Positions 4,477 to 32,465 of a stretch of 64,000 nucleotides of DNA are shown here, in pieces. Made by a program: the position numbers and the translations under genes. Each line of letters begins with the position of its first letter. Position 1 is the first letter of the stretch. Source of the DNA: Alphaproteobacteria bacterium (lineage in GTDB: Bacteria > Pseudomonadota > Alphaproteobacteria > UBA7887); NCBI GenBank assembly GCA_965216755.1, contig CBDCGL010000011.1:4256001-4320000 (forward strand), given 5' to 3'. The notes beneath the pieces were generated by a model. The model worked only from the letters and a program-made list of their open reading frames with translations. It was not told the origin of the DNA and ran no database searches.

Positions 4477-4707
4477 GGCGGCACGCTGCCGCGACGGCGT
4501 AGAACTTGGCAGCGAGCCATATCGGGTTGCCCACTTGAGTGAGGCAATGCCTTCATCTGGAGCGCGTACGTATGTTGGCGGGCGCCGACGTCGGGCGCCG
4601 CCCAATCGGTGCGCCGAGTGCGTTTCAAAATCTGAATTAATTTCGGCGAAAAGTCTGCTAGTGTAATCTCTGGGATCTAACCAAGAGACGCGGGGTGGAC
4701 GGATTCC

Positions 4708-5886: not shown

Positions 5887-6190
5887 GTCATTAATACAAA
5901 AAGAAAATTCTGTTTGAGCCAGATCCTTTGCCGAATCTGACCGAAAGGCCTACGGTCGGCTCGATTGACGTCGGCACAGCGCCTATTTTATTGCTAGCGG
6001 TATCGGCACCGGCGTGGCCGCCGGCACCGTCGCCAGCGGACAGAGCAAGGCTGGGCATGTATGTGGCCGGCTCAACACGGGGCCCCAATACGCTGCGAGA
6101 TTCGGCGGCGGAGCTGGGTTGGTGCGCCGGATTTTGCGTGATCTGGCGATCGACGCGTCGATGTTTGCGTGTGGTCAGGAGACGGTGCAC

Positions 6191-16154: not shown

Positions 16155-18200
16155 TCACTTGATTTCGAAGCGTGTTTCCAAGATCGCCGGCGCCACGAGC
16201 TGACAGCGGCCACGCAGGGTTGTGGCCGGCTCGCGGTATCCTAGCGCTCCAGAGTACCAGCCCAATGGCGCCGATTCGTCGCCGCGCACGATGTCCCATT
16301 GCCAGTGACCATCGACCGTGATGGTCATCAGCGAGCCGGTATCCGCGTCGACCGCCGACCAGGTCGGATGATTGGCGCCGCCGGTGCCCGTGTCGCGCGC
16401 GGACAGCACAAGGTGTGGGGCAAAATGAAAGTGTAAGGCGCAGTCATGGGGCACCGTTGCGGCTTGGTTGCCTGGTACACAGTCGATTCGGTCGCGAACG
16501 ACCAAGCACCTCTGCTCGCTATCTATCTCTACCGTTCGGTCGTGGACAACGCCCAGAGCCATGTACCCGTCGTGGCTGCCGCGTGCCCATTGGCTGCCAT
16601 CGTCTTCGAGCGCCCATTCGCGCAGCCGGGCCTTGGCGTGACGCAGCCACAAAAACGGACCGCCGATCAACGACTGGTCGTGATCGTCGACCGTGAGCGT
16701 GTTGTGGGCGCGCGTGCCGCGGAAATAGGATCGCCAGACCGGGTCTGAATGGTAGGCGAAGGTGCCCGGGTCGACCAACCACCAGGCACCGTCCACGGCC
16801 AGGCACAGGCTAAGGGCGTCGGCGTGGCCATGGGCGGCGATCGACGGGTAGCCGAGGGGGCCAGCGTCAAACACGAGGTGAAACTTCGGATCGCCGAGCA
16901 CCGCATAGCCGCCCTCAGGAAAGATCCGCGGATATGTGACGTCGGCCGATGCCGACCCGCCATCGCGGTTGGCGCCTGCGGGGACCGCCATGCGATACCA
17001 GTACGCTTTTTCGCCAATTGCCCGCGCATCGTCAGGTGGGTCGTCGCCGAACACGGCGTCGACCGCTTCCAAGACTTGGCCGTACGGATCCGTCGGCCAA
17101 CGTGCATCGAACCGGGTGACGAAGCCGTCGTCGGCGTCGCCAATCTGCGGTGGCGTACCTCCAGGTGGGGCGATTGCGCGCAGGAATGCTGCCATTGCCA
17201 ATATGCGATTGCGGAACGCGGCCGAGAAGGGTCTCGCGCAGGATTCACCGACGATCCAGGCGACCAAGAAATACTCTAAGACCCACAGATGATAATACGC
17301 CGCTTGCTCTTTGTTGACGCCGTCGGCAAAGACTTGAGCCGCGGCTTCGCGTTCCAATTCGCGTTGCGCGCGCCGCGCCCAGCGCGCGCCCCAGGCACCC
17401 ATATCGAAGGTGCAGGTGGCTACCCAAATACCGGTTAGCTCGCCGATGAGGTGGTTGTTTGCCGATGAATGTCGAGACAAAAAGCGGCTGATAAAATGCG
17501 TTTGTTGGTAAATCGCCGTTCCAAAACGCTGTTGATTGCGCATCGCCGGAAATATGCCGTCGGTGCCGTCGCGAACCGCGATCAACGCTTGGATGAATGA
17601 CCAAGCAATCAGTCGCAATGCCGGTTCCAAAGCGCTGCACCAATGCACGCCGAGGCCATAGGGATTGGCCAGGCACCAGCCATCGATCTGTTCGGCGACC
17701 GCGTCGCGGTAACGGGAGTCACCGCTATGGGCATAGGCGGCGGCCAGCGGTATCAAATGCTGATGGCGGCCCAGCTCCCACAGCACCTTGATGTCGCCGA
17801 CCAGCCGGTCATCGCGATAGTTGATGGTCTTGCCAAAGCTCAGAGGCGCGCGCAGACCGGTTTTCGGATCGCGGTGCCAGTCTACCGGATGACCGACTTC
17901 AAGTGGCGCGTTGCCGAAAAAATCAATCCGCCCGGCAGCGATATCCGCGAGGCCCGGCGCATCAATTGTATAGGCGGCCAACCTCTTGGCCTGCCACCCG
18001 TTCGGCGGATCGAACATGGACTGGCCAGGTTGGACAGGTCGCGATGGTCGCGGTTGTCGTTCAAGCCCGACCATGGTTTGTTCCACGCGCTGATCAACGG
18101 CGCGCCACAGTCGGTGCACGACTTCGCCCGCGCTCATTGCGCGCAGGCGGTTCAATTTCCAAGAAAGTCCGCTCAACCGACCAGATACTGACGATGCCAT
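16155..18200 (-). CDS. Heparinase II/III-like protein
   Basis: DIKVLWELGRHQHL, SSANNHLIGE, EQAAYYH, AAHGHADALS, VDPGTFAY, AHNTLTVD. Start uncertain (18224/18200/18137). Confidence 0.85.
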   Translation of the reverse strand: MASSVSGRLSGLSWKLNRLRAMSAGEVVHRLWRAVDQRVEQTMVGLERQPRPSRPVQPGQSMFDPPNGWQAKRLAAYTIDAPGLADIAAGRIDFFGNAPLEVGHPVDWHRDPKTGLRAPLSFGKTINYRDDRLVGDIKVLWELGRHQHLIPLAAAYAHSGDSRYRDAVAEQIDGWCLANPYGLGVHWCSALEPALRLIAWSFIQALIAVRDGTDGIFPAMRNQQRFGTAIYQQTHFISRFLSRHSSANNHLIGELTGIWVATCTFDMGAWGARWARRAQRELEREAAAQVFADGVNKEQAAYYHLWVLEYFLVAWIVGESCARPFSAAFRNRILAMAAFLRAIAPPGGTPPQIGDADDGFVTRFDARWPTDPYGQVLEAVDAVFGDDPPDDARAIGEKAYWYRMAVPAGANRDGGSASADVTYPRIFPEGGYAVLGDPKFHLVFDAGPLGYPSIAAHGHADALSLCLAVDGAWWLVDPGTFAYHSDPVWRSYFRGTRAHNTLTVDDHDQSLIGGPFLWLRHAKARLREWALEDDGSQWARGSHDGYMALGVVHDRTVEIDSEQRCLVVRDRIDCVPGNQAATVPHDCALHFHFAPHLVLSARDTGTGGANHPTWSAVDADTGSLMTITVDGHWQWDIVRGDESAPLGWYSGALGYREPATTLRGRCQLVAPAILETRFEIK

Positions 18201-20065
18201 AATTCCAACGTGAGCAGGCTCCACAACAGTTTTTCGTGGTTCTGACGTCCGTCGACATGCGCGCGCAGGATGTTGTTGAGCGCATCGGAATCATAGAATG
18301 CACGGGTTTTCGACTCGGCACCGGTCAGGTGGTCGTACAGATAATCGCGCATGGTGCCACGGAACCATTCATTGACGGGCACGCGGAAGCCAACTTTTGG
18401 TCGCTCGAGTATGGCAGCCGGCAAGATCTGTTTCATGGTCTGACGAAACAGCCATTTGGTCTGCATTCCGCGGACTCGGAAATGATCGGGTAGAGTCGAA
18501 AGATAGCCCGCGATTTCGTGATCGACGAATGGCATTCGTGCTTCCAACGATGCTGCCATCGTCACGCGGTCGCCGCGCTCAAGCAGATTGTCCGGTAGCC
18601 AGCTGGTCTGATCGAAATAGAGAATTTTGCGTAGCGGACTGCTCGTACAGGGCGGCGACAAGTGCCAAGGCTGTTCTGCCGATTCGACTGGCGGCGCGAA
18701 GGCCGTCAGGTGCGCACGCGCGTGCGGTGTCAGAGCGCCAAACCAGCGCGGCATGCGGGCGGTCCAATCATCCAAACCAAGGTTGGTCGCGGCAGTCTTG
18801 GCGCGACGAAAGCGATAGGGCAGGGCCTGTACCAAGGGTTCGACCAGATGACGGCGCAGACCACCCGGGATGAGCTGATACCAGGGGGTGAAACGTTCGT
18901 AGACATGTTTGGGGTAGCCGCCGAAAAACTCATCGCCGCCTTCGCCGGTCAAAACCATCTTGACCGTGCGGCGCGCTTCCTTGGAAAGCAGGAAGATCGG
19001 AATATCCGACGGCTCGGCGACCGGCGCGTCGCGGTGCCAGATCATGCGCGGCAAGTCGTCCATGAGATGATCGGACGACACCACCAGTTCGTGGTGGTCG
19101 GTTTTGAACAGCTCCGCCGCCATGCGCGCATAAGCTAACTCACTATAAGCGGCTTCGGAGAAACCCACAGAATAGGTTTTGATGGGCAGGCTGCTGTGGC
19201 GGCTCATCAACGCGACCACGGCCGACGAATCGATGCCGCCGGATAGAAATGCGCCAAACGGCACATCGCTGACCATGCGCGCTTGTACCGAATCCTCGAT
19301 CAACGCCGACATCTTGGCGATCGGCGACGGATCCACCGCGGACCGATCATACGGCGCCCGGTCAGGTGGCGTGTAGTAGCGGTTGTCAGGCCCCAACCGA
19401 CCATTTTCCCAAATCCGCCAGCAACCCGGCGCGAGCTTGGTGATTCCTTTGAACATGGTGCGCGGACCAGGCACATAGCGGTAGGCGAGATAGTCCCAGA
19501 CCGCGTCCATATCGACGCGCGCAGTCACCACCGACAAAGTCAGCAGCGCTTTAATTTCTGATCCAAAGGCCAGCTGGTCGTCGCTTGCAAAAACAAACAA
19601 AGGTTTTTTGCCAAAGCGATCGCGGGCCAAAAAAAGCCGCTGCCTTTTTGCATCCCAAATTGCGAAGGCGAACATGCCACGCAGGCGCTGGACACACGCC
19701 TCACCGAATTCCTCGTAGGCGTGAACGATGGTCTCCGTATCTGACGCGGTTTTGAACCGATGGCCACGCGTGATTAGCTCATCACGCAACGCTTTGAAAT
19801 TGTAGATCTCGCCATTGAAGATGATGTGGATTGTGCCGTCCTCGTTGGTCATCGGCTGCTGGCCGGTGTCCAGATCGATGATCGACAGACGCCGATGGCC
19901 CAAGGCGACGACCCGTCGACCATCGGCGGTGCGGGTCACAAAAGTACTGCTGTCGTCCGGGCCACGATGGGCGATAGCATCGGCCATGGCCGTAACGGCG
20001 GCCTGAGCGCCGTGTGGGCCACCGGCAGCGTCGCCGTGCATAATGAAGCCCGCGATCCCACACAT
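18173..20065 (-). CDS. asnB: Asparagine synthase-like glutamine amidotransferase (copy 2)
   Basis: MCGIAG, HRGPDD, HRRLSIID, NGEIYN, LSGGIDSS, TGEGGDE, SLEARMPF. Confidence 0.93.
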   Translation of the reverse strand: MCGIAGFIMHGDAAGGPHGAQAAVTAMADAIAHRGPDDSSTFVTRTADGRRVVALGHRRLSIIDLDTGQQPMTNEDGTIHIIFNGEIYNFKALRDELITRGHRFKTASDTETIVHAYEEFGEACVQRLRGMFAFAIWDAKRQRLFLARDRFGKKPLFVFASDDQLAFGSEIKALLTLSVVTARVDMDAVWDYLAYRYVPGPRTMFKGITKLAPGCWRIWENGRLGPDNRYYTPPDRAPYDRSAVDPSPIAKMSALIEDSVQARMVSDVPFGAFLSGGIDSSAVVALMSRHSSLPIKTYSVGFSEAAYSELAYARMAAELFKTDHHELVVSSDHLMDDLPRMIWHRDAPVAEPSDIPIFLLSKEARRTVKMVLTGEGGDEFFGGYPKHVYERFTPWYQLIPGGLRRHLVEPLVQALPYRFRRAKTAATNLGLDDWTARMPRWFGALTPHARAHLTAFAPPVESAEQPWHLSPPCTSSPLRKILYFDQTSWLPDNLLERGDRVTMAASLEARMPFVDHEIAGYLSTLPDHFRVRGMQTKWLFRQTMKQILPAAILERPKVGFRVPVNEWFRGTMRDYLYDHLTGAESKTRAFYDSDALNNILRAHVDGRQNHEKLLWSLLTLELWHRQYLVG

Positions 20066-20121
20066 GGGCTAGGCCGCCCCCAGAGGCCGAACATGGCCGC
20101 CCATCGCCGAATTGGCGTGCT

Positions 20122-21186
20122 TCATTGGGCGGATAACCCGCCCGCCATTGCGGTGGCCTGGTTGACCAACGCCTCGACGGTGGGCAGCAGACCGGTGGTC
20201 ATCATCTGGTGAGCCTGGGCATTGGGGTGACCGTCTTTCGGCACGCGCAGGCTTTGCTCGGAAGCGCGGTCGCCGGCTGGATGGACCTCGATAAATGCAA
20301 GCTCAGGAAACTCGGCGCGCATAATTTGGGCGAGCGTCTGGGTCATGGGGCTGGCCGAAAGGTCGAGACAGGCCACCAAATGGGGCCGGTCACCGACTAT
20401 GTCGCGAAATTTGGCGATTGTTTGGCGAAACGTTTGAAGACGTGGATCGTCGTCGGAAACCTCTGGTGCACGCCCGACCTGGGCGCGGGCGCCAACATAG
20501 CGAAACCGCCGCAGATGTGTCTCCTTGCCGACGATGGCCAGATGCGATTTGCGCAGACCGGCGCGAAAAACGTCCATGGCCCAAGACGGCGGACCAAATG
20601 TGGTTTTGGTCAAATAGCCGAATCGGTCGACGCGATTGTTCGCCCGCTCAGGATTAAGGTCATGGGAGATGAACGCCAGCAACACGATATCGGCGTCGAT
20701 CTCTGGCAAACGGTCCTGCAGATGGGCCACTTCCATGGGCAGGGAGTGACCCGGCACGCCAAAGTTGAGCACCGCGATATTGTGGCCAGCATCCCCCAAG
20801 GCATACTCAAGCTGTGCCGGGAATCCTTCTTCGGCCGCGATTGATTGGCCGAAAGTGACCGAATCACCAAATACAGCGATCGTCGTTCTGGGCGCCGTCG
20901 GGTCTATCGTGGCCGCATATGGCGTGTGCAGACGATTGCCGAACGGCCCCGTTTCCGTCCAGGTGGGACCCTTGAGCCGGCCTTGATAGTTCGACTTGAG
21001 GACCCAATAGCTGTCTTGGCCGGCGGCCTCGAAGGCGGCTTCTGTGTACAAATGATCGGCCAAGCCAAGGACCCGGACGGCGACCTCCAACAAGGCAAAT
21101 GTGACGATGGCGATGATCGCCGCCGACCGCAAAAACGAAAAAATCCTTCTAAATGCGGACTTTCCTGAGGTCTTGCCGTCGTTCAT
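20122..21186 (-). CDS. Membrane-anchored SGNH/GDSL hydrolase-family protein (copy 1)
   Basis: N-terminal TM (AIIAIVTFALLEVAVR), block I FGDSVTFG, block II NFGVPG, block V DGHPN. Confidence 0.8.
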   Translation of the reverse strand: MNDGKTSGKSAFRRIFSFLRSAAIIAIVTFALLEVAVRVLGLADHLYTEAAFEAAGQDSYWVLKSNYQGRLKGPTWTETGPFGNRLHTPYAATIDPTAPRTTIAVFGDSVTFGQSIAAEEGFPAQLEYALGDAGHNIAVLNFGVPGHSLPMEVAHLQDRLPEIDADIVLLAFISHDLNPERANNRVDRFGYLTKTTFGPPSWAMDVFRAGLRKSHLAIVGKETHLRRFRYVGARAQVGRAPEVSDDDPRLQTFRQTIAKFRDIVGDRPHLVACLDLSASPMTQTLAQIMRAEFPELAFIEVHPAGDRASEQSLRVPKDGHPNAQAHQMMTTGLLPTVEALVNQATAMAGGLSAQ

Positions 21187-21470
21187 AAAGTTCCCCTGAT
21201 CGACCCGGCCCGCGATCAAACATGGCCGTGCCAGTTTCGGCTATATAATGTGGTGTGCCGCCGTCATTGAATCCCGCCGCGCCCCGCGCATTTTTTCGCG
21301 GGCAGAAATCGTGGCACCGTCTGACCATGTCGGTCGCGCGCCGTCATTCCCTGCCGCTGGAAAAGGCGGGCATTCGCGGGATGCGTGATACATTAATGCA
21401 TGATTGCATAACATCCCGTTGACGATGATCGCAGCGGCAGAGAAATCGGAACAAAACCCGCCATCGGTCA

Positions 21471-23018
21471 ATGCTGAGAAATTTTAGCCTTAAGATCGAT
21501 ATTGAATGGGTCTTCGCTTTTGTGATGGCCACCGGCTTCGCCTATTTTGTGGGCACCGGATTTTGGCTTGGCGCGGCTGGCATCATGGCGATCATGGTGT
21601 CGATCTGGCTGGGGCTCACGCAGCAATATATGCTGACCGTCGTGTGGTTGGTCGGAATGCCGACGATCTTCGTCATGGCCAACAACGTTATGAGTAGCAT
21701 TCCGATCTTGAATGCAGACCGGGCGCTGTTTTTCGTCTTGCTCGGTTTCTTGATTGCCCATGCCCTGGTGCGCTCGAACATGGTCGCGGGGGGCGGCACG
21801 CTTGGCGCCGCACTTGGCATCTATTTGTTTTATGTCCTCGTGTCCTGGTCATTCACCTTGCCGGACCGCGCCTGGAGCGATGTCTATCGCGACATCGCGT
21901 TTCTGCTTGACCGTTTCCTGATGCCGACCGTGGCTTATCTCATGGCTCGGTTTTTGCCGTGGGAACGTGAGCGCCTGACGACTTTTCTTTGGATCGTGGT
22001 CGCCTGGATGGGCTCATATCTGATTATTACGGGCTTGCTGCAATATGCCTTGGGCTGGACGTTCTTCATGCCGGCGGGGCCCGAACGGCTGTTTCCCGAT
22101 CGCGTAACCGGTCCGTTCGTCAACTCCACCTATTACGGCATGGCGGTCGCCATGGTGATGCTGATGGCTCTGTTCTTGGCCTTGCACACCAAGGCACTTG
22201 GCTGGCGGTCGGTGTTGTTGGCGTTCGTTGGCGCTCTCTTGCTGATGGTGTTGTTGAGCAAGTCGCGCTCTGTTTGGCTGGCCGCACCGATTGTCCTGGC
22301 GTATCTGTTTTTGCGGGTGCAGCGCACGCGTCCGATGATCACGTTTGCGGCCGTTGCGGTCGCCGCTGTCGCGCCGGTCGCACTGCCGCTAATTGTTGAT
22401 TTCGGCGATCTCGCAACCCGACTTGGGTCTTTGGGGCCGATCTACAATCGCCTGACCTTGTGGGGCACGGCGGTGAACATGATCATCGACAAGCCAATTT
22501 TCGGCTTTGGATTCGGTTGGGCCACATTCGGGCAATATAAGGCAGATTTCTATGCCAGTGTGGCCGGCGTTCCGGCCCAATATGCGGCGATTCCCAAGAT
22601 CCCGCACAATGAATATTTGAATGTTGGCGTCATGTTGGGTTTGGTCGGCTTGGTGCTTTATTTCGTTTGCCTATCCCGGGCCTGGCGGGTCTTGACGGCG
22701 GTTCGGCAATCATGGGCGCATGAGGACTCGTTCGTGTCCGACTTGGCCGTGTTTGTACAAAGCTGTCTTCTGTTGGTCTTGGTCGGCGTGGTTTTCATTG
22801 ACTTGGCTGAATCCTCGTCGGTCATCGTAATTTTCTTGTTCTTCTTGATCGGCATCGTGACCCGGTTTCATGACATCGTGAAACCGACAACAGCGCCGGC
22901 GCCCGAGCCATCGCGCGCACGTTCGCTGATCCTGCGCACGCCAGCGACTGCCACGCCCCGGACCGCAAAAGGCACGCCGACGCGCCCGGCACTCAGTCGC
23001 GCGCGGCCACGCGGCTAG
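21471..23018 (+). CDS. O-antigen ligase / Wzy polymerase family membrane protein
   Basis: Multi-TM protein with RVTGPFVN, LSKSRSVW, RLTLW...KPIFGFG and PHNEYL motifs. Confidence 0.85.
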   Translation: MLRNFSLKIDIEWVFAFVMATGFAYFVGTGFWLGAAGIMAIMVSIWLGLTQQYMLTVVWLVGMPTIFVMANNVMSSIPILNADRALFFVLLGFLIAHALVRSNMVAGGGTLGAALGIYLFYVLVSWSFTLPDRAWSDVYRDIAFLLDRFLMPTVAYLMARFLPWERERLTTFLWIVVAWMGSYLIITGLLQYALGWTFFMPAGPERLFPDRVTGPFVNSTYYGMAVAMVMLMALFLALHTKALGWRSVLLAFVGALLLMVLLSKSRSVWLAAPIVLAYLFLRVQRTRPMITFAAVAVAAVAPVALPLIVDFGDLATRLGSLGPIYNRLTLWGTAVNMIIDKPIFGFGFGWATFGQYKADFYASVAGVPAQYAAIPKIPHNEYLNVGVMLGLVGLVLYFVCLSRAWRVLTAVRQSWAHEDSFVSDLAVFVQSCLLLVLVGVVFIDLAESSSVIVIFLFFLIGIVTRFHDIVKPTTAPAPEPSRARSLILRTPATATPRTAKGTPTRPALSRARPRG

Positions 23019-23021
23019 CGC

Positions 23022-24140
23022 CTAGGGTGTCGTAGCTGCTTCGCCGTCGCTGGCTACGTGGGTCATGGCCTGATCTTCCACCAATATCCGGGTGACTTCA
23101 TCGCCGATCATCCGATGAGCTCGCGCCGAAATATGGCGATGGCCGTGTGCAACATGGACTTGGTCCGGAGCGACCTGGTCAGAGGCAAACAAAATCGTGC
23201 TGTCGATGAACGCATCGCTGTTGTCTTGCAAGGTCTGACGTATGTCGGCGGCAGCCGATGGCCGAATGCCGCCGTCGCGAGACACACTTGGGATATCGAC
23301 GATGATCAAAAAAATGCCCTGTTGCTTCGTGAATGCATAGAGCCTCTCAAAAAGGGCGTGGCCGAGTGCAACTTCATAATTGTCGACCTCGCCGGTGGCG
23401 ACGGCGTACTCCGTGGTCAGTTTTGCGCGTTCTTTGCTCAGCAAAGCCGCTTTGGCCAATTGCCATAGCGAGTTGAACCCAAATGAATACAGATATGAAT
23501 TCTCACTCAGCCATCTGAGCACGGCAAACTGGTTGATCGCGTCCATGATCGCCACGCCGGGTATGTGGCTTTTCTTGACGACCACAAGCTCGTCATCTTC
23601 CAGGCGAAAGATCCCAGCCTTGGTGTTGTCGCTCAGATCGTTGGCATAGAAGCCGACAACCACGACATCAGGCCGATAGCGCACGCCTTCCTGTTCCAAG
23701 AGCACCAGCTGTTCGGCCGTGCTGAAGCCTGATACGCCGGCGTTGATCACCTCGGCGTTTATGCCGGAGTGGTTCAAATTCGTCGCGATCACCTCAGAGA
23801 ACGTTTCGTTTTGGTGAACCTCCGCGCCGGCGGTTTGCGAATCGCCGAGACTCAGCACGCGAAAGACACCGTTCGGCTTGTCATAGGAAAAATCCTTGGT
23901 GCTGCGAAACCCTTGGGCATTGATGTCATAGCGCCACGCCCCATCGACGCTGGTGTGCCAAAATGTCGCGTCGGGCCGGTAGCGGCGCAGCGTGAAGTCG
24001 CCATAGGTTGCCGAGGTGTGATAGCGCGGATACATCAAGATCTGGTCTTTCATGAACAGCCGCAGGCAGGCTTCGCCGAGCAGACAAGCGACCAAAATCG
24101 ATATGGCGACCAACGCAAATGACGATAGAAAAGCTCTCAT
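23022..24140 (-). CDS. Membrane-anchored SGNH/GDSL hydrolase-family protein (copy 2)
   Basis: N-terminal TM, INAQGFRS, LGDSQTAG, INAGVSG, YANDL, C-terminal HRH in place of DxH. Confidence 0.8.
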   Translation of the reverse strand: MRAFLSSFALVAISILVACLLGEACLRLFMKDQILMYPRYHTSATYGDFTLRRYRPDATFWHTSVDGAWRYDINAQGFRSTKDFSYDKPNGVFRVLSLGDSQTAGAEVHQNETFSEVIATNLNHSGINAEVINAGVSGFSTAEQLVLLEQEGVRYRPDVVVVGFYANDLSDNTKAGIFRLEDDELVVVKKSHIPGVAIMDAINQFAVLRWLSENSYLYSFGFNSLWQLAKAALLSKERAKLTTEYAVATGEVDNYEVALGHALFERLYAFTKQQGIFLIIVDIPSVSRDGGIRPSAAADIRQTLQDNSDAFIDSTILFASDQVAPDQVHVAHGHRHISARAHRMIGDEVTRILVEDQAMTHVASDGEAATTP

Positions 24141-24940
24141 AAACGATTGCGTCCTTATTGCTGCAGGGTCGGTGCTTGTCCGCTGTTTTGGCTACGCCCC
24201 GATATGCGATGGCCGGAACATGTTGAAGCTATATACGAGCGCAAGAATCGGCGATCAACGTTCGGATGGCTGGCCGAGGCAACGATCCTGCACGAGCCAA
24301 TGATTCGGCGTCCTTCAGTTCGAGCAAATACAATAATAACCGTTTAAAGATCTCAGATTAGCTTGCTCCGGACAGGCGAGAGGGGCCCGCAAGGTGCCTG
24401 CCGGCGTATCCATGTACCGTGGGGGTTCGGCTGTGCCAACGTCTCCGACTTGTCGCCGTGTTTGCGCATTTGATCTCGGGCCGATATGGCCGGCCGCGGC
24501 CTGCGCCGCCCCTCGGGTCGCATTCGGCGCCTTCGATGGCCTTCTAGCCTATTGCTTTTCAACGAGATTCTTGGCGGCGGGACACGGGCTGGCAGTTGAT
24601 CCGGAAATGTGCACACGGGTCGGCGGCATGACAAGGAAGCTACAGGTGTCATCAAAGTTCAGCCTCGGTTCACGGTCAGCTTGGAATGATTCGCATGCGG
24701 AACTAAAATCCGAGACGAATTCCCGATCACTACTGCCGATCAAAGTTTCCTGGGCTTTGTGGTCGTGGCAAAGGGATCGACCTAAATCGATCGTAAGGGG
24801 CAGACCCCCTGAGGATAATTCGGAGTGTCGTCGGCGCCGCAGAGGGTCGTGCGCCGTCGTCGCGCGTCGATCGGATGAGGGTCGGAGTCGCCGGCGTTGA
24901 CGGCGCGCAACGATGCTTGAAGGGCATGTGGGCGAGGACA

Positions 24941-25381
24941 ATGGGCGCAAAAAAGGATACCGGTACACACGAACGATTGCAGCGATCGGAAGTCGTTCAA
25001 GGTTCGTCGGATCGATCGTTTGGGATCGTCTTCGCGGTCGTATTTGGCATTATCGCCATTTGGCCGTTGCTCCACGAGGGTGGTCTGCGCTGGTGGTCTT
25101 TGATCATCGGGTTGGGTTTCCTGGCCGTGTCATTCGTGCGCCCAACGTTGCTTGCGCCACTCAACTACATTTGGACCAAATTCGGCTTGCTGCTTCACCG
25201 CATCGTCAACCCGCTGATTATGGGTATTCTGTTCTTTATCGTCGTGACCCCGATCGGACTTGTGATGCGACTCGGCGGCAAAGATCTGCTGCGACTCCGA
25301 TTTGAGCCAAATCAACAGTCCTATTGGATTGAGCGTGAACCACCCGGACCAGCGCCGGACTCTATGAAACATCAGTTCTGA
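24941..25381 (+). CDS. SxtJ-family membrane protein
   Basis: SDRSFGIVF, PLNYIWTKFGLLLHRIVNP, VTPIG, SYWIER, C-terminal MKHQF; adjacent to a carbamoyltransferase. Confidence 0.85.
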   Translation: MGAKKDTGTHERLQRSEVVQGSSDRSFGIVFAVVFGIIAIWPLLHEGGLRWWSLIIGLGFLAVSFVRPTLLAPLNYIWTKFGLLLHRIVNPLIMGILFFIVVTPIGLVMRLGGKDLLRLRFEPNQQSYWIEREPPGPAPDSMKHQF

Positions 25382-25388
25382 GGCTGAA

Positions 25389-25538
25389 ATGGACTTCTTG
25401 AAAGAGCTTTGGCAGTTCATGCGTGTGCGCAAGAAGTTTTGGCTGATGCCAATTCTTTTGATGATGCTGCTTCTTGGCGGATTGGTGGTGCTGACTCAAG
25501 GCAGTGCCGTGGCGCCGTTCATCTACACAATCTTTTAG
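25389..25538 (+). CDS. 49-aa single-TM peptide, SxtK/DUF5989 family
   Basis: Below the ORF-track cutoff. Manual translation: MDFLKELWQFMRVRKKFWLMPILLMMLLLGGLVVLTQGSAVAPFIYTIF*. Fits the gap between the sxtJ-like and carbamoyltransferase genes. Confidence 0.92.
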   Translation: MDFLKELWQFMRVRKKFWLMPILLMMLLLGGLVVLTQGSAVAPFIYTIF

Positions 25539-25552
25539 TTTAGGCGGCTCCG

Positions 25553-27388
25553 ATGCGCATTTTGGGTCTTTCGGCCTTCTATCACGACAGTGCCGCGGCG
25601 CTGGTGGATGAAACTGGGATTGTCGCGGCGGCGCAGGAAGAGCGCTTTACCCGGGTCAAGCACGACTCGGGCTTTCCCAGCCATGCCATCGAATATTGTT
25701 TGAAAGAAGCGGGTATCGGCCTGGGCGATGTCGACTTCGTGGCATTCTACGATAAGCCGTTTTTGAAGTTCGAACGACTGCTTGAGACGTACCTGGCATT
25801 CGCGCCACGGGGCTTCAAATCGTTCCGCATGGCGATCCCGGTTTGGCTCAAGGAGAAGCTGTTTCAGAAGAAGCTGCTCAAGGACGAACTCAAGCAATAC
25901 GCGCCCGACTATGACTGGGAGAAGCGCCTGGTGTTCGCCGAGCATCACCAGAGCCATGCTGCCAGCGCGTTTTATGCCTCACCGTTTGAGTCTGCTGTCG
26001 TGTTGACAATGGATGGTGTTGGCGAATGGGCGACGACGTCGGTTGGCATGGGCTATGGCGGCGGTTTGGAGATGGCGAAGGAGATCCATTTCCCCCATTC
26101 CATCGGGCTACTCTATTCGGCGTTCACCTACTACACCGGCTTCAAGGTGAACTCGGGCGAGTACAAAGTCATGGGATTGGCTCCCTATGGCGAACCGAAA
26201 TACAAGCAGCTGATTCTGGATAATCTGGTTGACCTGAAAAAAGACGGCACATTCCGCCTGGACCTGGACTATTTCGACTACTGCACCGGCCTTCGCATGA
26301 CCAACGACAAGTTCGACGCGCTGTTTGGCGCGCCGGCGCGACAACCGGAACAGCGGCTGACCCAGCGCGAGATGGACCTGGCGGCGTCGATCCAAGCGGT
26401 GACCGAAGAGATCGTCCTGCGATTGACACGGTCTTTGGCGGACGAGACCGGCTCGAGGAACCTGTGTTTGGCCGGCGGTGTGGCACTGAACTGTGTTGCC
26501 AATGGCAAGGTGCTGCGTGACGGTAGGTTTGAGCATATGTGGATTCAACCGGCGGCCGGCGACGCGGGCGGCGCGTTGGGGGCGGCCTTGGCCGCGTATC
26601 ACCTGTACCAAGGAAAGCCACGGCACATCAACGGCGCCATGGACGCGATGAGCGGCAGTTATCTGGGGCCGGCCTTTGCCCAAGACGATATCGAGGGACG
26701 CTTAACCGCGGTCGGTGCCAAATTCGAAACGCTCAGCGACGATGATCTGGTCAATGCAGTGGCCGATGCTTTGGTCGACGAAAAGGCGGTCGGTTGGTTC
26801 CAAGGCCGCATGGAGTTTGGGCCGCGCGCCTTGGGTGGTCGTTCCATACTGGGCGATCCGCGTTCGCCGACAATGCAGAAAACGCTCAACCTGAAGGTCA
26901 AGTATCGCGAGAGCTTTCGACCCTTTGCGCCATCGGTGTTGGCCGGCGACGTGTCGTCTTGGTTCGAACTGGACAGTGAAAGCCCGTACATGCTGCAGGT
27001 CGCCGATGTTGCCAAGGAGCGGCGGCGCGAGATGACCAATGAGGAACATGCCTTGTTCGGGATCGAAAAGCTAAACGTTGCCCGGTCAGAAATTCCGGCC
27101 GTGACCCACGTCGACTATTCGGCCCGAATTCAGACTGTCCACGAAGAAACCAATCCGCGTTACCACGCCTTACTCGAGGCATTCAAGGCGCGCACCGGTT
27201 GCCCGATCTTGGTCAATACGTCGTTTAATGTTCGCGGCGAGCCGATCGTCTGCACGCCCGAAGATGCTTTCCGTTGCTTCATGGGCACGGAGATCGAACG
27301 TCTCGCGGTCGGCAATTGTCTGCTGAAAAAGGAAGATCAGGATCCTTCGTTGAAGCTCGACTATAAGGATGCGTTTGAGCTTGACTGA
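25553..27388 (+). CDS. O-carbamoyltransferase (NodU/CmcH/TobZ/SxtI family)
   Basis: ILGLSAFYHDSAAA, EERFTRVKHD, HHQSHAASAF, DGVGE, EYKVMGLAPYG, GRMEFGPRALG, RESFRPFAP, NTSFNVRGEPIV. Confidence 0.95.
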   Translation: MRILGLSAFYHDSAAALVDETGIVAAAQEERFTRVKHDSGFPSHAIEYCLKEAGIGLGDVDFVAFYDKPFLKFERLLETYLAFAPRGFKSFRMAIPVWLKEKLFQKKLLKDELKQYAPDYDWEKRLVFAEHHQSHAASAFYASPFESAVVLTMDGVGEWATTSVGMGYGGGLEMAKEIHFPHSIGLLYSAFTYYTGFKVNSGEYKVMGLAPYGEPKYKQLILDNLVDLKKDGTFRLDLDYFDYCTGLRMTNDKFDALFGAPARQPEQRLTQREMDLAASIQAVTEEIVLRLTRSLADETGSRNLCLAGGVALNCVANGKVLRDGRFEHMWIQPAAGDAGGALGAALAAYHLYQGKPRHINGAMDAMSGSYLGPAFAQDDIEGRLTAVGAKFETLSDDDLVNAVADALVDEKAVGWFQGRMEFGPRALGGRSILGDPRSPTMQKTLNLKVKYRESFRPFAPSVLAGDVSSWFELDSESPYMLQVADVAKERRREMTNEEHALFGIEKLNVARSEIPAVTHVDYSARIQTVHEETNPRYHALLEAFKARTGCPILVNTSFNVRGEPIVCTPEDAFRCFMGTEIERLAVGNCLLKKEDQDPSLKLDYKDAFELD

Positions 27389-27758
27389 CCGACCGAGAAT
27401 AGAGCCGCATCGCCACCGGCGGCGGATAGTACGGTCGCACCTGGCAAGCAACCGCGTGCACGCGATAAGGTTTGAGCAGTGGACGGAGATATCGGGCGCC
27501 AATGTCGGCCTTAAAGGTCGAACCGGCGTTGCCGTTGGCGTGCGCGAAAAATGGTTATGGGTCGCGGATTCGGCTGCTTCGCCCAAGTTACAACTGTGCT
27601 GGCGGAGTTTGGCGAACTACGGCCACAAAGTCGGAATACGGACAATATCTGGATTGGCCGGAAACGTTGCGATGCGAGGGAACTGACAAGTCTTCGTTTC
27701 GACGAGGGCGGAGTCCGGAGACAAGCCGAAACAGCGAGCTGAACAAAGGTACAGGCAG

Positions 27759-30700
27759 ATGACCGCGAATGTCTTCGACTGTGTGATTCTCGGTGATGAA
27801 TCACTGCTCATCGGGTGCGGTGATATCTTGCGTGAACGCGGCCATCGGATCCGCGCGATTATGTCGGCCAATCCGCAAATCGCCACCTGGGCAAAAAGCA
27901 ACGATATAACGTGCGTGTCGGATTTAGAGAGCTTGCGCGCTTCGATGGCCGAGGGCGCGATCGACTATTTGTTCAGCATCACCTATTTGTCGATTGTTCC
28001 GACGGATCTCTTGGCGGCGGCGCGGCATGGCGCGATCAATTTTCACGATGGGCGCTTGCCGGACTATGCGGGCCTCAATACACCGGTTTGGGCGCTGCTC
28101 AATGACGAGCGAGATTACGGCATCACCTGGCACTTGATGGCCGAAAAAGTCGACCAAGGCGATATTTTGATGCGTGTCCCGGTGGCGATCCAGGACCACG
28201 ATACGGCCCTGAGTCTCAACACCAAATGTTACGAAGCGGCGCTGCAATCATTTCCCGTTCTTCTGGATGCGCTGGAGAGCGAGAACGTTGCGCGCAGCCC
28301 GCAGAATCCGAGCGCGATTCGCTACTTCGGCAAATACAAAAAGCCGGATGCGGCCTGCGCCATACGCTGGGATCAAGATGCGGCTGCGATCACACGTTTG
28401 GTGCGCGCCCTGGAATTTGGCGCGTATCGCAATCCGGTGGGCGCGGCCAAACTGTTGCTTGGCGACACGGCAGTTATCGTCCACGAGGCCGACAACGTGG
28501 GGACAGCGGCACAACACGCGGCCGGCGAGGTTGTTGGGATCAGCGAAGAGACAATCACCGTGGCTGCCGGACAGGGCGCCGTTGCGCTGCGCCGTCTCAG
28601 CCAATTGTCAGGGGCCAGTTGCACGATATCCGACATTGTCGCACATCATGACCTCAAGGTCGGTGATCGACTGACAGTGATTGACGACGCCAGCGCCCAA
28701 AGCCTGGGCGCGCGGCAGAGCGATGTCGCCAAGCACGAGGACTACTGGGTCCGACGTTTGGCGAACCTGGATGGGGTCAGATTGCCCGGACATGGGGGGG
28801 GCGCATCCGCACCGACTCAGCCAAGCATGCACGCCGAGCCGTTTGTCGTGCCCTCTGATGCCCAATCCTTGCTGGGCGGCGACCCGCTCGCGTTTATGGT
28901 CGCCTTGGGTGCGTTCGTGGCACGAATGGATGGCAAGACAAGCTTCGACGTTGCATACCGCGATGGCGCCCTGCGGGCATTGGTCCCGGTCGATGATCCG
29001 ATTTTTTCACGCTTCGTGCCACTGCGGTTTGAGATTGATTTGGCAACGCCGTTCGCCGACCAACGTGCGCAGCTGTCTGCGGCCATCCAAGAACTGACCA
29101 AACGCAAGACATTTCTGATTGATGCGAAGGCGCGGCACCCGGCGGTGGCGCAGGCGACGGCTAACGGCGCGCCGGTTTTGCCGGTCCGAATTAACGTCGG
29201 TGGCATAACCGAGCCAGCCAACGCGGGCGGCCTAACGATCGCAATTGATGACGCCGCGACAGAATGTATCTGGCACTACGATTCCGCTGCCGTCAGTGCG
29301 TCCGCCGTGCACGCGGCCCAAACGCGCTTCGCCGCTTTCTTGGAAAATCTGTCGCGCATGTCGACCGCGTCGCTCGCTGATGTGCCGATGTTGAGCGCGG
29401 ACGAACAGCAGACCATGCTGCGCGACTGGAACGACACCGTGCGCGATTATCCGCGCGACCGTTGCGTCCATCAGCTGTTTGCGCAACGCGCGGCGCAAAC
29501 GCCCGACGCGGTTGCCTTGGTGTTCGAAAATCAATCGCTCACCTATGGCGCGCTCAACGCACGGGCCAACCGAGTCGCGCACCAATTGCGTGATATGGGC
29601 ATTGGGCCCGACAAACTGGTCGGCGTCGCGGTGGAGCGCTCGATCGATTTGATGGTTGCTGTTTTGGGTGTCTTGAAGGCGGGCGGCGCCTATGTGCCGA
29701 TCGATCCGTCGTATCCGCACGAACGCGTTCGGCTCATGCTCGAGGATTCGAATGTGCCGGTCCTGCTCACGCAACGACATTTGATGGTGGATCTGCCGGA
29801 TCATGCGGGCCGGGTTTTGTGCGTTGACGCGGACGGCGTGCAAGCTGACGCGGCCGGCGACCATGATCCGGACGTTGCCGTTCAACCCGACAATCTCGCC
29901 TACGTCATTTACACGTCTGGTTCCACGGGACGACCCAAAGGGGTCATGGTCGAACATCGCAACGTGGTCAATTTCTTTGCCGGCATGGACGACTGCATTG
30001 CACACGATCCGCCTGGCGTGTGGTTGGCGGTGACCAGCCTATCGTTCGATATTTCGGTGTTGGAGCTGTTTTGGACCCTGGCGCGCGGCTTCAAGATTGT
30101 CCTCCACGGCGATACGCCGCAGCGTAAAGTGGCCGCGGCGACAAGCGGCGCGGCACGAAAGCGACCGGTGAACTTCAGCTTGTTTTATTTTGCCAGCGAT
30201 CAGCAGGGCCAGGGTTCAGAGCGGTATCGATTGCTAATGGATGGCGCCAAGTTTGCCGATGAGCATGGCTTTGAAGCGGTCTGGACCCCGGAGCGCCATT
30301 TCCACGATTTCGGCGGCTTGTATCCGAATCCGTCGGTGGCCGGTGCAGCCATCGCCGCGATCACCAAGAACGTTGGCATTCGGTCAGGCAGTTGTGTTTT
30401 GCCCTTGCACCATCCGATTCGTGTCGCCGAAGAATGGAGCCTGGTCGACAATCTGTCCGACGGCCGCGTCGGAATCGGCATTGCATCTGGTTGGCAACCT
30501 AATGATTTTGTCTTGCGTCCGCAAAATCATGCCAAGGCCAAGGACATCATGTTCCATTCCTTGGAACAAGTGCAGAGGCTGTGGGCCGGCGAAAGCGTCA
30601 CGTTTCCGGGGCCGAAAGGTGATGTCGATGTCGCGATAATGCCAAAGCCGGTCCAAGATTCGTTGCCGGTTTGGATCACCACCGCCGGAAATCCCGAGAC

Positions 30701-32450
30701 CTATCGGCAGGCCGCACAGGCCAAGAGTTTCGTTTTGACGCATCTTCTTGGCCAAAGTCTCGATCAGGTCGCGGAAAAGATCGAGATCTATCGGCAAGCG
30801 TGGCGAGAAGCGGGGCACGAAGGCGAAGGCCACGTCACTTTGATGCTGCACACGTTCGTCGGCGACGATCCCAGCTTCGTCAAGGATATCGTCCGCGAAC
30901 CGATGAAACGCTATCTGTCGACCGCGATGAGCCTGGTCAAGGCCGCCGCGTGGAACTTTCCGACTTTGCAGAAGAAGTTCGTCGAGAAGTCCGGCGACGA
31001 GCTAGACGCCTATTTTGCCAACGCCTCCGAATCCGATCTGGATGCGCTGCTGGAGTTCGCGTTCGACCGCTATTACGAGCAGAGCGGCCTGTTCGGAACG
31101 CCGGAGCATTGTATCGAAATCGCCGAACGTGTTCGCGCGATCGGCGTCGACGAGGTTGCGTGTTTGATCGATTTCGGTGTGCCGACCGATATCGTTCTTG
31201 AACATCTCCCGCACCTTAACAAGGTTCGGCAGGCGATCGTGGCAGCCAATGATGATGGCGACACAGACGATCATTCGATCGCCGCCTTGATTGCGCGTCA
31301 CGGTGTCACGCACCTGCAATGCACGCCCTCGATGGCGAGTATGCTGTTGGCGGACACGGCGACCCGCGACGGGCTTCGCTCCGTCAAGCAGATGTTTGTC
31401 GGTGGCGAGGCCTTCCCGACACCGTTGGCCGAGGATTTGCGCGCGGCCGTCGGTGGCGACGTGACCAACATGTATGGCCCCACCGAAACAACGATTTGGT
31501 CATCGGTGCACAAGGTCGATGACACGTCCGCGGCAATCCCCATTGGGCGTCCGATTGCCAACACGCAGCTCTATGTATTGGATGAGTCCCAGCACCCGGT
31601 ACCAGTAGACGTGGTTGGTGAACTATATATCGGCGGCGACGGCGTCGTGCGCGGCTATAAGGACCGGCCGGACTTGACCGCCGAGCGCTTTGTCGACATC
31701 AGTGTCGTGCCGGGTGAGACGCCCCGTCGCTTGTATCGCACCGGTGATTTGGTGCGCTATCGCGAAGACGGCGTCATTGATTTCCTCGGTCGGGCGGATC
31801 ACCAGGTCAAGGTTCGCGGCTATCGAATCGAGTTGGGCGAAATCGAGTCGGTGCTGGGTCGTCATCCCGCAGTGCGATCGGCGGTCGTCGTCGCCCGAGA
31901 CGATGATGCCGGCGGACGTGGTTTGGTAGGTTATTATGTCCCGGACACGGGTTGGTCGCCAACCGTGCAAGAACTGCGCGATTTCACCGCGGCGCGATTG
32001 CCGGAATTCATGGTGCCGTCGTTGTTTGTTGAACTTGATGCGTTTCCGCTGACTCCCAACGGCAAGGTTGATCGGAAAGCCCTGCCAGATCCGATGGATA
32101 GCCGGCCACGGCCAGCATCGGTCGCCGACTATGAACCGCCCGTGGGCGAAATGGAAAGCGATATCGCGGAAATTCTGTGCGAGGTACTTGGCGTCGAGAA
32201 GATGGGACGGCAGGACAGCTTCTTCGACCTTGGCGGTCATTCACTGTCTGCGGTTCGAGTCGCGTTCCAGATGCGCCAGCAATTCGGGGTCGATTTTCCG
32301 CTTCAAACACTCTTCGAAGCGCCCACTGTTGCGGCACTGGCGGAGCGTGTTGAAACCATGGTACTTGAGCAAGCCGATAGCGATGAGCTTGAGAGTCTCT
32401 TGGCAGAAATGGAAGATACCTCAGACGCCATCGCGGTCGGCAACGACTAA
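27759..32450 (+). CDS. NRPS starter: formyltransferase - degenerate C - adenylation domain interrupted by a luciferase-like monooxygenase - PCP
   Basis: F: INFHDGRLPDYAG, VDQGD. A: YTSGSTGRPKG, SFDIS, NMYGPTE, YRTGD, NGKVDR. LLM insert about 30168-31230 (FSLFYFA, WTPERHF, SGWQPNDF). PCP: FFDLGGHSL. Confidence 0.92.
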   Translation: MTANVFDCVILGDESLLIGCGDILRERGHRIRAIMSANPQIATWAKSNDITCVSDLESLRASMAEGAIDYLFSITYLSIVPTDLLAAARHGAINFHDGRLPDYAGLNTPVWALLNDERDYGITWHLMAEKVDQGDILMRVPVAIQDHDTALSLNTKCYEAALQSFPVLLDALESENVARSPQNPSAIRYFGKYKKPDAACAIRWDQDAAAITRLVRALEFGAYRNPVGAAKLLLGDTAVIVHEADNVGTAAQHAAGEVVGISEETITVAAGQGAVALRRLSQLSGASCTISDIVAHHDLKVGDRLTVIDDASAQSLGARQSDVAKHEDYWVRRLANLDGVRLPGHGGGASAPTQPSMHAEPFVVPSDAQSLLGGDPLAFMVALGAFVARMDGKTSFDVAYRDGALRALVPVDDPIFSRFVPLRFEIDLATPFADQRAQLSAAIQELTKRKTFLIDAKARHPAVAQATANGAPVLPVRINVGGITEPANAGGLTIAIDDAATECIWHYDSAAVSASAVHAAQTRFAAFLENLSRMSTASLADVPMLSADEQQTMLRDWNDTVRDYPRDRCVHQLFAQRAAQTPDAVALVFENQSLTYGALNARANRVAHQLRDMGIGPDKLVGVAVERSIDLMVAVLGVLKAGGAYVPIDPSYPHERVRLMLEDSNVPVLLTQRHLMVDLPDHAGRVLCVDADGVQADAAGDHDPDVAVQPDNLAYVIYTSGSTGRPKGVMVEHRNVVNFFAGMDDCIAHDPPGVWLAVTSLSFDISVLELFWTLARGFKIVLHGDTPQRKVAAATSGAARKRPVNFSLFYFASDQQGQGSERYRLLMDGAKFADEHGFEAVWTPERHFHDFGGLYPNPSVAGAAIAAITKNVGIRSGSCVLPLHHPIRVAEEWSLVDNLSDGRVGIGIASGWQPNDFVLRPQNHAKAKDIMFHSLEQVQRLWAGESVTFPGPKGDVDVAIMPKPVQDSLPVWITTAGNPETYRQAAQAKSFVLTHLLGQSLDQVAEKIEIYRQAWREAGHEGEGHVTLMLHTFVGDDPSFVKDIVREPMKRYLSTAMSLVKAAAWNFPTLQKKFVEKSGDELDAYFANASESDLDALLEFAFDRYYEQSGLFGTPEHCIEIAERVRAIGVDEVACLIDFGVPTDIVLEHLPHLNKVRQAIVAANDDGDTDDHSIAALIARHGVTHLQCTPSMASMLLADTATRDGLRSVKQMFVGGEAFPTPLAEDLRAAVGGDVTNMYGPTETTIWSSVHKVDDTSAAIPIGRPIANTQLYVLDESQHPVPVDVVGELYIGGDGVVRGYKDRPDLTAERFVDISVVPGETPRRLYRTGDLVRYREDGVIDFLGRADHQVKVRGYRIELGEIESVLGRHPAVRSAVVVARDDDAGGRGLVGYYVPDTGWSPTVQELRDFTAARLPEFMVPSLFVELDAFPLTPNGKVDRKALPDPMDSRPRPASVADYEPPVGEMESDIAEILCEVLGVEKMGRQDSFFDLGGHSLSAVRVAFQMRQQFGVDFPLQTLFEAPTVAALAERVETMVLEQADSDELESLLAEMEDTSDAIAVGND

Positions 32451-32465
32451 ACGCACAAACGACAG

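Follow-up and report, generated by a model that had tools for sequence, protein, structure and literature searches.

We analyzed a 64,000-nucleotide window (i.e., the whole stretch of DNA examined here; contig CBDCGL010000011.1, positions 4,256,001 to 4,320,000, forward strand) from the alphaproteobacterial assembly GCA_965216755.1 (lineage UBA7887). The subject is an SxtK-like membrane microprotein (referred to here as SxtK), which is encoded between an SxtJ-like membrane protein (SxtJ) and a carbamoyltransferase (CT) and lies close to two genes for SGNH proteins (SG1 and SG2) (Table 1). A functional linkage among CT, SxtJ, SxtK, and the SGNH proteins is well supported by the results below, and we regard it as highly probable. 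As the mechanism behind it, we tentatively favor a relay in which a tyrosine of the SxtK tail carries the carbamoyl group, although the chance that this is correct falls slightly short of even.

The genes for SxtJ, SxtK, and CT form a tight operon in this order. The start codon of SxtK lies 7 nt past the SxtJ stop codon, that of CT lies 14 nt past the SxtK stop codon, and a GAGG sequence stands 5 to 6 nt ahead of the SxtK ATG. SG1 and SG2 are both located upstream of the operon on the opposite strand. SxtK matched Pfam DUF5989 (PF19451) over its full length (positions 1 to 49 of 49; E = 6.9e-28; 96.9 bits; cut-off, 27), SxtJ matched PF19588 (E = 1.8e-9; 38.7 bits; cut-off, 24.4), and CT matched both Carbam_trans_N (4.5e-110; 368.8 bits) and Carbam_trans_C (1.6e-73; 246.3 bits). 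The score of CT against the NodU model (E = 5.1e-43; 147.7 bits) was below the cut-off of 1000, and CT is thus not a NodU equivalog. It carries the stretch GPRALGGRS, which has been described as the putative catalytic site (PMC3037375). A preliminary description of this DNA had placed a 49-amino-acid (aa) peptide with a single transmembrane (TM) helix between an SxtJ-like gene and a CT gene, and all of its checkable points proved correct. It had also reported two membrane-anchored SGNH genes nearby and no MBOAT gene in the window. Both observations held, and no MBOAT (PF03062) was detected anywhere in the genome, which is 99.8% complete. The genome contains one copy of the DUF5989 gene and three AT3 genes, each more than 900 kb from the SxtK locus.

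Table 1. Positions of the SxtK operon, the SGNH genes, and other genes in the window
Feature	Positions	Strand	Length (aa)	Matches
SxtK-like microprotein (SxtK)	25389-25538	+	49	Pfam DUF5989
SxtJ-like membrane protein (SxtJ)	24875-25381 (real start possibly ATG at 24941)	+		PF19588
Carbamoyltransferase (CT), SxtI/NodU/TobZ type	25553-27388	+	611	Carbam_trans_N + Carbam_trans_C
SGNH protein SG1	23022-24140	-	372	Lipase_GDSL_2, 5.1e-9; family profile, E 1.4e-79 (strongest in the genome)
SGNH protein SG2	20122-21219	-	365	Lipase_GDSL_2, 5.4e-7 (below cut-off); family profile, E 1.3e-55
Wzy/O-antigen-ligase-like membrane protein, between SG1 and SG2	21471-23018	+		Wzy_C, 1e-17
AsnB-type glutamine amidotransferase	8751-10694	-
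AsnB-type glutamine amidotransferase	18173-20065	-
Heparinase II/III-like protein	16155-18224	-
Three large nonribosomal peptide synthetase genes	27759-40026	+
Phosphopantetheinyl transferase	41791-42549	-

The SxtK tail and known acyl shuttles

SxtK consists of a basic amphipathic N terminus (RVRKK), one TM helix, an 8-residue linker (TQGSAVAP), and the hexapeptide FIYTIF; its C-terminal end is GSAVAPFIYTIF-stop (APFIYTIF-COOH). The DUF5989 family comprises 3,289 clusters at 50% identity (E ≤ 1e-3), and loci were also found in Nitrospira, Acidobacteriota, Desulfobacterota, and SAR11. Among the best 150 of the 3,289 cluster representatives, 115 have an exact [FM][IV]YxxF end and 148 have the tyrosine, and the exceptions resemble frameshifts or miscalled fusions. 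An even sample of 201 Pseudomonadota genomes contained 54 genomes with SxtK above the Pfam cut-off (K+ genomes), and 59 SxtK genes were extracted from 58 loci of these genomes. All 59 encode Tyr at position -4, F or Y at position -1, and a stop directly after the hexapeptide, while F occurs at position -6 in 53 of them. The invariance of the Tyr, which the preliminary description had proposed to check, was borne out in both collections. Divergent members without the RKK box still carry GSxxAPF[IL]YxxF-COOH, which makes the tail the part of SxtK under the strongest constraint.

The 59 sequences have a mean of 4.1 Lys and Arg residues before the helix and 0 after it. Because positive charges are present on the N side only, SxtK is predicted to adopt an N-in/C-out topology with the tail Tyr in the periplasm. 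In an AlphaFold2 (AF2) model of the SxtJ-SxtK fusion P0087 as one chain, the tail was flexible (predicted local distance difference test [pLDDT], <50). This fusion and three others (P0197, P0234, and P0269) were rejected as evidence for topology; they are singletons, and their junctions resemble stop read-through, frameshift, or deletion. The SxtK profile gave only chance matches (E ≥ 0.36) to the sequences of solved structures, and the ESM Atlas yielded no usable match among look-alikes outside DUF5989. One locus, L167 (G014:C21), contains tandem SxtK genes (8001-8201 and 8212-8439, both on the minus strand) with the tails LIYTMF and FIYTLY, and an SGNH gene is located two genes away.

The acyl shuttle motif has been given as FXYXXF in the available text of Anderson et al. 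2025 (PMC12148441), from which the following is taken. DltX is a membrane microprotein with its C-terminal motif on the extracellular side; the near-C-terminal Tyr takes D-Ala from the MBOAT DltB and passes it on to the Ser of DltD, which is an SGNH protein. Other bacterial MBOATs bear the same hexapeptide at their own C terminus. Covalent acyl-Tyr has been demonstrated for DltX and PatA; PatA auto-acetylates its tail Tyr, and a FIYANF peptide carrying acetyl can serve PatB as the donor. As far as that text goes, MBOAT/SGNH pathways other than Dlt have no DltX-like microprotein.

MBOAT genes were present in 74 of our 201 sampled genomes, and each of the 30 MBOAT loci returned from 200 Pseudomonadota genomes had an open reading frame (ORF; 300 aa or longer) with the C-terminal end F[IL]Y[FYL][QNR]F-COOH. 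Ahead of this tail come a basic loop, a TM helix, and a 6- to 8-residue linker, which is the layout of SxtK. In a profile-profile comparison, SxtK and the last 60 residues of 27 MBOATs were aligned with their tails in register (P = 1.6e-4; probability, 51%; 11 columns). The likeness is real at the motif level and falls short of proof of common descent. The preliminary description, which had given the DltX tail as FIYNEF, had read the SxtK terminus as such a shuttle tail. For motif, register, and architecture, the analogy to DltX and MBOAT tails is sound, but SxtK lies outside the Pfam DltX family (a Pfam scan at E ≤ 0.01 gave DUF5989 alone).

SxtK shares with DltX, as far as the latter is described (PMC12148441), a size of about 50 aa, one TM helix, a C-terminal FXYXXF with an invariant Tyr, and a link to SGNH proteins (for SxtK, a link by gene position). 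In contrast to DltX, which needs the MBOAT DltB to load its Tyr as well as a carrier protein, SxtK occurs in genomes without any MBOAT (19 of the 54 K+ genomes, including the present one). SxtK is also always found beside CT and SxtJ, and the transferred group would be carbamoyl instead of D-alanyl. The PatA/PatB and AlgI/AlgJ/AlgX systems have the same hexapeptide at the MBOAT C terminus, and the SGNH subfamily defined below adjoins both MBOATs and SxtK; however, their tail is part of the MBOAT, whereas that of SxtK is on a free 49-aa peptide. The donor differs as well, i.e., PatA/AlgI-type donors are 11-helix, acyl-CoA-using membrane enzymes with a catalytic His, whereas the donor here would be a soluble ATP-dependent CT. 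OatA-type AT3-SGNH proteins are similar in that an acylated Tyr of the membrane part feeds an SGNH domain in a trans-membrane relay (PMC12148441), but the OatA Tyr is outside any C-terminal hexapeptide, and no AT3 domain is located near SxtK.

SGNH partners of the triad

We compiled two sets of loci. Sample 1 consisted of the 80 most SxtK-like public loci, in 78 of which SxtK was located, and sample 2 consisted of the 58 loci from the K+ genomes. Genes were called with our own crude ORF picker, and SGNH-like genes in sample 1 were identified by a jackhmmer search with SG1 and SG2 as seeds. In 31 of the 78 loci of this sample, the SxtJ-SxtK-CT triad had an SGNH-like gene as an immediate neighbor. 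By position, SGNH-like genes accounted for 32 of 143 first-flank genes, 10 of 132 second-flank genes, and 13 of 663 genes beyond (22%, 8%, and 2%, respectively). The corresponding values for sample 2 were 17 of 106, 4 of 101, and 3 of 337, with a flanking SGNH gene in 16 of the 58 loci. Most of the sample 1 candidates (49 of 57) had an SGNH-type Pfam match, several of them to ALGX, and many of the flanking genes in this sample were codirectional with the triad at gaps of 0 to 70 nt. No recurrent functional neighbor other than SGNH was observed in either sample. The first flanks of sample 1 contained neither a second recurrent partner nor an MBOAT; the other genes at these positions were mixed (e.g., rsmB, a thiamine pyrophosphate enzyme [SAR11 synteny], UDP-glucose dehydrogenase, and glycosyltransferases).

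To score genomes, we used a profile of SxtK-adjacent SGNH proteins (alignment A2; 32 sequences) and counted matches at E ≤ 1e-20 as presence. The SGNH subfamily was present in 45 of the 201 genomes, 40 of which were K+; that is, it was present in 40 of the 54 K+ genomes versus 5 of the 147 genomes without SxtK (odds ratio, 81). Within one taxonomic family, a hand count gave 6 of 7 genomes with SxtK versus 3 of 40 without. Five K+ genomes without an adjacent SGNH gene were searched genome-wide at E ≤ 1e-3; a full-length member was present elsewhere in three, and none was present in the other two (G157 and G191). The co-occurrence of DUF5989 and SGNH genes put forward in the preliminary description is therefore strong by position and by genome, but it is not universal. 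The subfamily pairs with MBOAT tails too, but far more tightly with SxtK; of its 81 genes in the sampled genomes, 15 begin no more than 6 kb from SxtK and at least 9 (compared on a subset of contigs) begin no more than 6 kb from an MBOAT gene.

Three further arrangements were observed. The locus L147 (G025:C22:31690-47833) has the order SGNH-SxtK-SxtJ-CT-MBOAT-SGNH-SGNH, with both systems side by side. The genome of the present window contains a third paralogue of the SGNH subfamily at L209 (G000:C11:2685000-2697000), two genes from an AT3 gene and accompanied by a beta-helix protein (ORFs at 4226-5494 on the minus strand and at 5548-7062 and 7315-8532 on the plus strand); this group is probably a separate O-acylation unit. 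In four loci of one bacterial family (L159, L169, L170, and L176), the triad adjoins lptF/lptG (lipopolysaccharide [LPS] export permease genes) and has no adjacent SGNH gene, which hints at LPS as the target of these triads.

SG1 has an N-terminal TM anchor (AF2 helix, residues 2 to 34) and a catalytic domain that is predicted to be periplasmic (model pLDDT, 86), and SG2 has an N-terminal hydrophobic TM anchor and GDS and DGHPN blocks. The features of the subfamily in alignment A2 are an N-terminal membrane helix, an N..GFR box, the GDS Ser, an invariant His, and usually D-x-H(W). In SG1, the nearly invariant Ser is S101, and the invariant His is H336. SG1 itself has no ALGX Pfam match, whereas several homologues have one. 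The A2 profile matched CgnD over its full length (1.7e-10), and its C-terminal half matched AlgX (4.3e-10), AlgJ (1.8e-9), and PatB1 of Bacillus cereus (3.7e-5). A plain Foldseek search of SG1 gave generic SGNH esterases only, and CgnD was singled out by a VIA second look. The solved structure nearest to the SG1 model was CgnD (PDB 8a2n; Z, 19.7; root mean square deviation, 3.8; 235 residues aligned), followed by a match with a Z of 16.3. SGNH matches ranged from Z 14 to 20 and included PatB of Neisseria gonorrhoeae (14.6). CgnD is the very slow "protease" of the crocagin cluster. According to the crocagin paper, this cluster stands alone among crocagin-like clusters in having a carbamoyltransferase (CgnI), and its product is carbamoylated. 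A prediction of the SG1-SxtK complex (alignments A2 and A1) scored 0.25 against a mark of 0.32 in a single job without controls and counts neither for nor against contact.

The donor side and the setting of the locus

A homologue of SxtJ was modeled by AF2 with three membrane helices (pLDDT, 90 to 98), and the conserved residues of the SxtJ tail are D137, Y150, W151, and QF-COOH. As a small three-helix protein without a conserved His, SxtJ does not look like an obvious substitute for an MBOAT. In the 80 SxtK-like loci, phmmer detected SxtJ in 63 and CT in 73. Natural CT-SxtJ fusions of 738 aa (CT, residues 1 to 590; SxtJ, residues 608 to 737) are encoded in two genomes of one genus (L187:8184-10400 and L190:8185-10401, both on the minus strand), indicating that CT and SxtJ are one working unit and that the N terminus of SxtJ is cytoplasmic. 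Each fusion gene is followed by a divergent SxtK gene (tail, YIYAMF) and then by an SGNH gene, with a second SGNH gene two genes upstream.

Median pairwise identity was 64% for CT (minimum, 50%; n = 100 SxtJ/SxtK-linked sequences from several phyla), 61% for SxtK, 39% for SxtJ, and 17% for SGNH. A relay predicts a donor cassette that stays constant combined with a last enzyme that varies, and a constant target at the inner membrane face would also explain the CT value. TobZ, NodU, and CmcH belong to the same family of two-domain O-carbamoyltransferases; these soluble enzymes are known to act alone on soluble acceptors, whereas the CT clade described here is tied to two membrane partners and shows unusually high conservation.

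The same four gene families occur in cyanobacteria in the same order (CT-SxtJ-SxtK-GDSL/SGNH), as sxtI, sxtJ, sxtK, and sxtL of saxitoxin clusters. This parallel is drawn from published descriptions, in which the accessions of sxtI, -J, -K, and -L (L being a GDSL lipase) run consecutively and one origin is inferred for all four. From 2008 to 2010 onward, publications have described SxtJ and SxtK as working "in conjunction" with SxtI, and the accessible text of these sources (PMC2679770, PMC2885083, and a 2026 preprint) gives no function for either. The Lyngbya wollei cluster yields no carbamoylated toxins; its sxtI is truncated, sxtL is missing from it, and sxtJ and sxtK are never mentioned in its report (PMC3037375). 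A "decarbamoylation" role was assigned to SxtL by homology only, according to the accessible parts of two reports (PMC3037375 and PMC2679770), and sxtJ, -K, and -L are also grouped in the suomilide gene cluster. In contrast to these clusters, our window is a polysaccharide locus of a noncyanobacterium, and the acceptor is presumably a sugar polymer. Literature searches, with most subscription journals outside their reach, returned nothing on DUF5989, on an acyl shuttle combined with carbamoyl, or on DltX together with SxtJ or SxtK, and nothing relevant was found on carbamoyltransferase, SGNH, and polysaccharide in combination.

As a polysaccharide locus, the window contains genes for glycosyltransferases, a priming sugar transferase, a Wzx-like flippase, and UDP-glucose dehydrogenase. 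The Wzy-like protein encoded between SG1 and SG2 matched the exosortase-A-associated ligase model TIGR03097 below its cut-off (1.6e-16), and on its sequence it is likely to be the polymerase or ligase of the modified polysaccharide. The window also encodes two AsnB-type glutamine amidotransferases and a heparinase II/III-like protein. Together with the weak match to the ligase model, these genes suggest an exopolysaccharide locus of the PEP-CTERM/exosortase type. An Rfam scan of positions 19000 to 28500 gave no match at E ≤ 0.1. Between 24000 and 27900, promoter-like sites occurred at chance level, and 10 terminator-like sites were present (mean of shuffled sequences, 4.1; standard deviation, 1.9), none of which was convincing.

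Three large nonribosomal peptide synthetase (NRPS) genes follow the operon, the first of which starts 371 nt past CT. The first encodes formyltransferase, adenylation, luciferase-like monooxygenase, and carrier domains; the second encodes a condensation-adenylation-thiolation (C-A-T) module and a nitroreductase domain; and the third encodes a C-A-T module. The block is followed by hydrolase genes and a phosphopantetheinyl transferase gene. The CT operon might in principle serve the NRPS product rather than the polysaccharide.

Candidate carbamoyl relay and alternative explanations

We propose that CT, SxtJ, SxtK, and the neighboring SGNH proteins may constitute a single trans-envelope O-carbamoylation module for the exopolysaccharide of the locus. 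The cytoplasmic CT would make activated carbamoyl from carbamoyl phosphate and ATP, which is established chemistry of the TobZ/NodU family, and SxtJ would dock CT on the membrane, as the natural fusions suggest. The carbamoyl group would then be placed on the invariant Tyr of the FIYTxF tail of SxtK. By the identity of the motif and the co-occurrence of SGNH genes, the flexible periplasmic tail would offer O-carbamoyl-Tyr to the SGNH Ser in the manner of DltX to DltD or the PatA tail to PatB, and the SGNH protein would hand the carbamoyl group to a sugar hydroxyl. The conserved CT-SxtJ-SxtK set would provide a universal donor side, with the acceptor selected by the highly divergent SGNH protein. 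O-Carbamoyl-Tyr is an aryl carbamate, i.e., it belongs to a class of compounds that carbamoylate serine hydrolases; for this reason, transfer from Tyr to SGNH would be plausible, and the slow hydrolysis to be expected would be in keeping with a transferase. What we infer here is the carbamoylation of the Tyr, the membrane passage via SxtJ and SxtK, and the role of the SGNH protein as a terminal transferase rather than an esterase. Such a module would be a variant of the known Tyr acyl-shuttle systems, and within the literature searched it appears to be unpublished.

In its general form, the proposal would make SxtK a free-standing carbamoyl-Tyr shuttle that is fed by CT with no MBOAT or AT3. 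The SGNH proteins, including those of the SxtL type, would be the terminal extracytoplasmic O-carbamoyltransferases, and swaps of divergent SGNH proteins would retarget the CT-SxtJ-SxtK donor cassette. We offer this generalization as a possibility with less than even prospects.

Several observations weigh against the relay. CT is cytoplasmic, yet the SxtK Tyr is predicted to be outside, and a conduit would be needed for loading. MBOATs solve this problem by a tunnel, whereas only the three helices of SxtJ and the one helix of SxtK, perhaps as oligomers, would be available here. The SxtJ alignment contains no conserved His or other obvious catalytic residue, and the C-terminal tail of SxtJ is rich in Lys and Arg (6.6 per 34 residues), which fits neither side of the membrane cleanly. 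SG1 has H-R-H where most of the family has D-x-H and so lacks the Asp of the triad, although SG2 has DGH. Generic esterases follow CgnD closely in the structural comparison (Z, approximately 16) and rank above PatB, and CgnD has been described as a slow hydrolase (the crocagin paper). The SGNH protein is not obligatory, i.e., 14 of the 54 K+ genomes lack the subfamily at E ≤ 1e-20, including genomes that are 95 to 100% complete (G157, G191, G042, G070, and G134), and 60 to 70% of SxtK loci have no adjacent SGNH gene. The threshold matters here, since approximately 5 of these 14 genomes carry weaker SGNH-like genes near SxtK; in K+ genomes without SGNH, either another enzyme may substitute or the triad may act alone. 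Profile A2 was built from SxtK-adjacent genes, the odds ratio overstates independence because the sampled genomes are interrelated, and the gene calls were those of a crude ORF picker. Finally, the co-occurrence would equally fit an SGNH protein that removes carbamoyl or acetyl groups, as in the old annotation of SxtL.

An alternative explanation places all carbamoylation on the cytoplasmic side. SxtJ and SxtK would merely tether CT to the inner face of the membrane, where CT would carbamoylate a lipid-linked sugar or another membrane-proximal acceptor before export. The SGNH proteins would be periplasmic esterases that trim carbamoyl or acetyl groups (cf. the proposal for SxtL and Ape1 beside PatA/PatB), and FIYxxF would be a structural or packing element with no more than a resemblance to the MBOAT tail. 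To our knowledge, every CT-family enzyme described so far modifies its hydroxyl acceptor directly and in the cytoplasm. The CT-SxtJ fusion shows tethering and nothing further, SxtJ has no catalytic-looking residue, and the closest solved structure to SG1 is that of a hydrolase. The many SxtK loci without an adjacent SGNH gene, and the several complete K+ genomes without the subfamily, would likewise be expected. The triad is also often located amid housekeeping or LPS genes (lptF/G and rsmB), which would suit a constant inner-face target. However, this explanation does not account for the most conserved part of SxtK being an uncharged tail that is predicted to be outside and is in register with a proven acyl-Tyr shuttle. 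If the SGNH protein were an editing esterase, one would expect it to be optional, whereas the subfamily is nearly confined to K+ genomes (40 of 45), and serine hydrolases are typically blocked rather than turned over by carbamoylation. The 64% identity of CT across phyla also contrasts with the very different contexts of the loci. On balance, we consider carbamoylation at the inner face with SGNH trimming to be unlikely.

The carbamoyl-Tyr relay also has to be compared with a noncovalent coupling, in which the SxtK tail docks in or gates the SGNH cleft or SxtJ and thereby links CT activity in the cytoplasm to an enzyme of the periplasm or to export, while the tail itself would at no time bear the carbamoyl group. 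Such coupling draws on the same conservation and co-occurrence data, agrees with the flexibility of the modeled tail (pLDDT, <50), and sidesteps the movement of an activated carbamoyl group across the membrane. The invariant residue is nevertheless Tyr, which is the chemical carrier in every characterized system with the motif that is covered in the available text of PMC12148441. Binding alone would tolerate Phe at position -4, but none of the 59 SxtK genes encodes it there. We therefore regard noncovalent coupling as quite improbable. A mere coincidence, with a chance likeness in a short hydrophobic tail and with SGNH and SxtK genes that are both common in polysaccharide loci, would fit a motif defined by four positions only, a profile-profile probability of just 51% over 11 columns, and the lack of a sequence match between SxtK and any solved chain, but it is hardly credible given that SGNH enrichment drops with distance (22%, 8%, and 2%) and does so again in sample 2, that the genome-level odds ratio of 81 holds within one family, and that many SGNH-partnered triads lie outside polysaccharide loci.

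DUF5989 is present in 54 of the 201 evenly sampled Pseudomonadota genomes, and neither the DUF5989 family nor the SxtJ family has an assigned function. If the carbamoyl-Tyr relay is correct, the principle of the Tyr acyl shuttle would extend from D-alanylation and O-acetylation to carbamoylation and to MBOAT-free systems. The relay would be the first acyl-Tyr relay without an MBOAT or AT3 and would be fed by an ATP-dependent carbamoyltransferase. It would also explain how polymers that have already left the cell can be modified by a cytoplasmic CT, and the gene quartet long noted in cyanobacterial natural-product clusters would be read anew. A single Tyr of a 49-aa peptide would then provide a simple handle on the role of carbamoylation at the bacterial surface. 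The tight linkage of CT, SxtJ, SxtK, and SGNH is a new and testable functional association whether or not the covalent step is correct.

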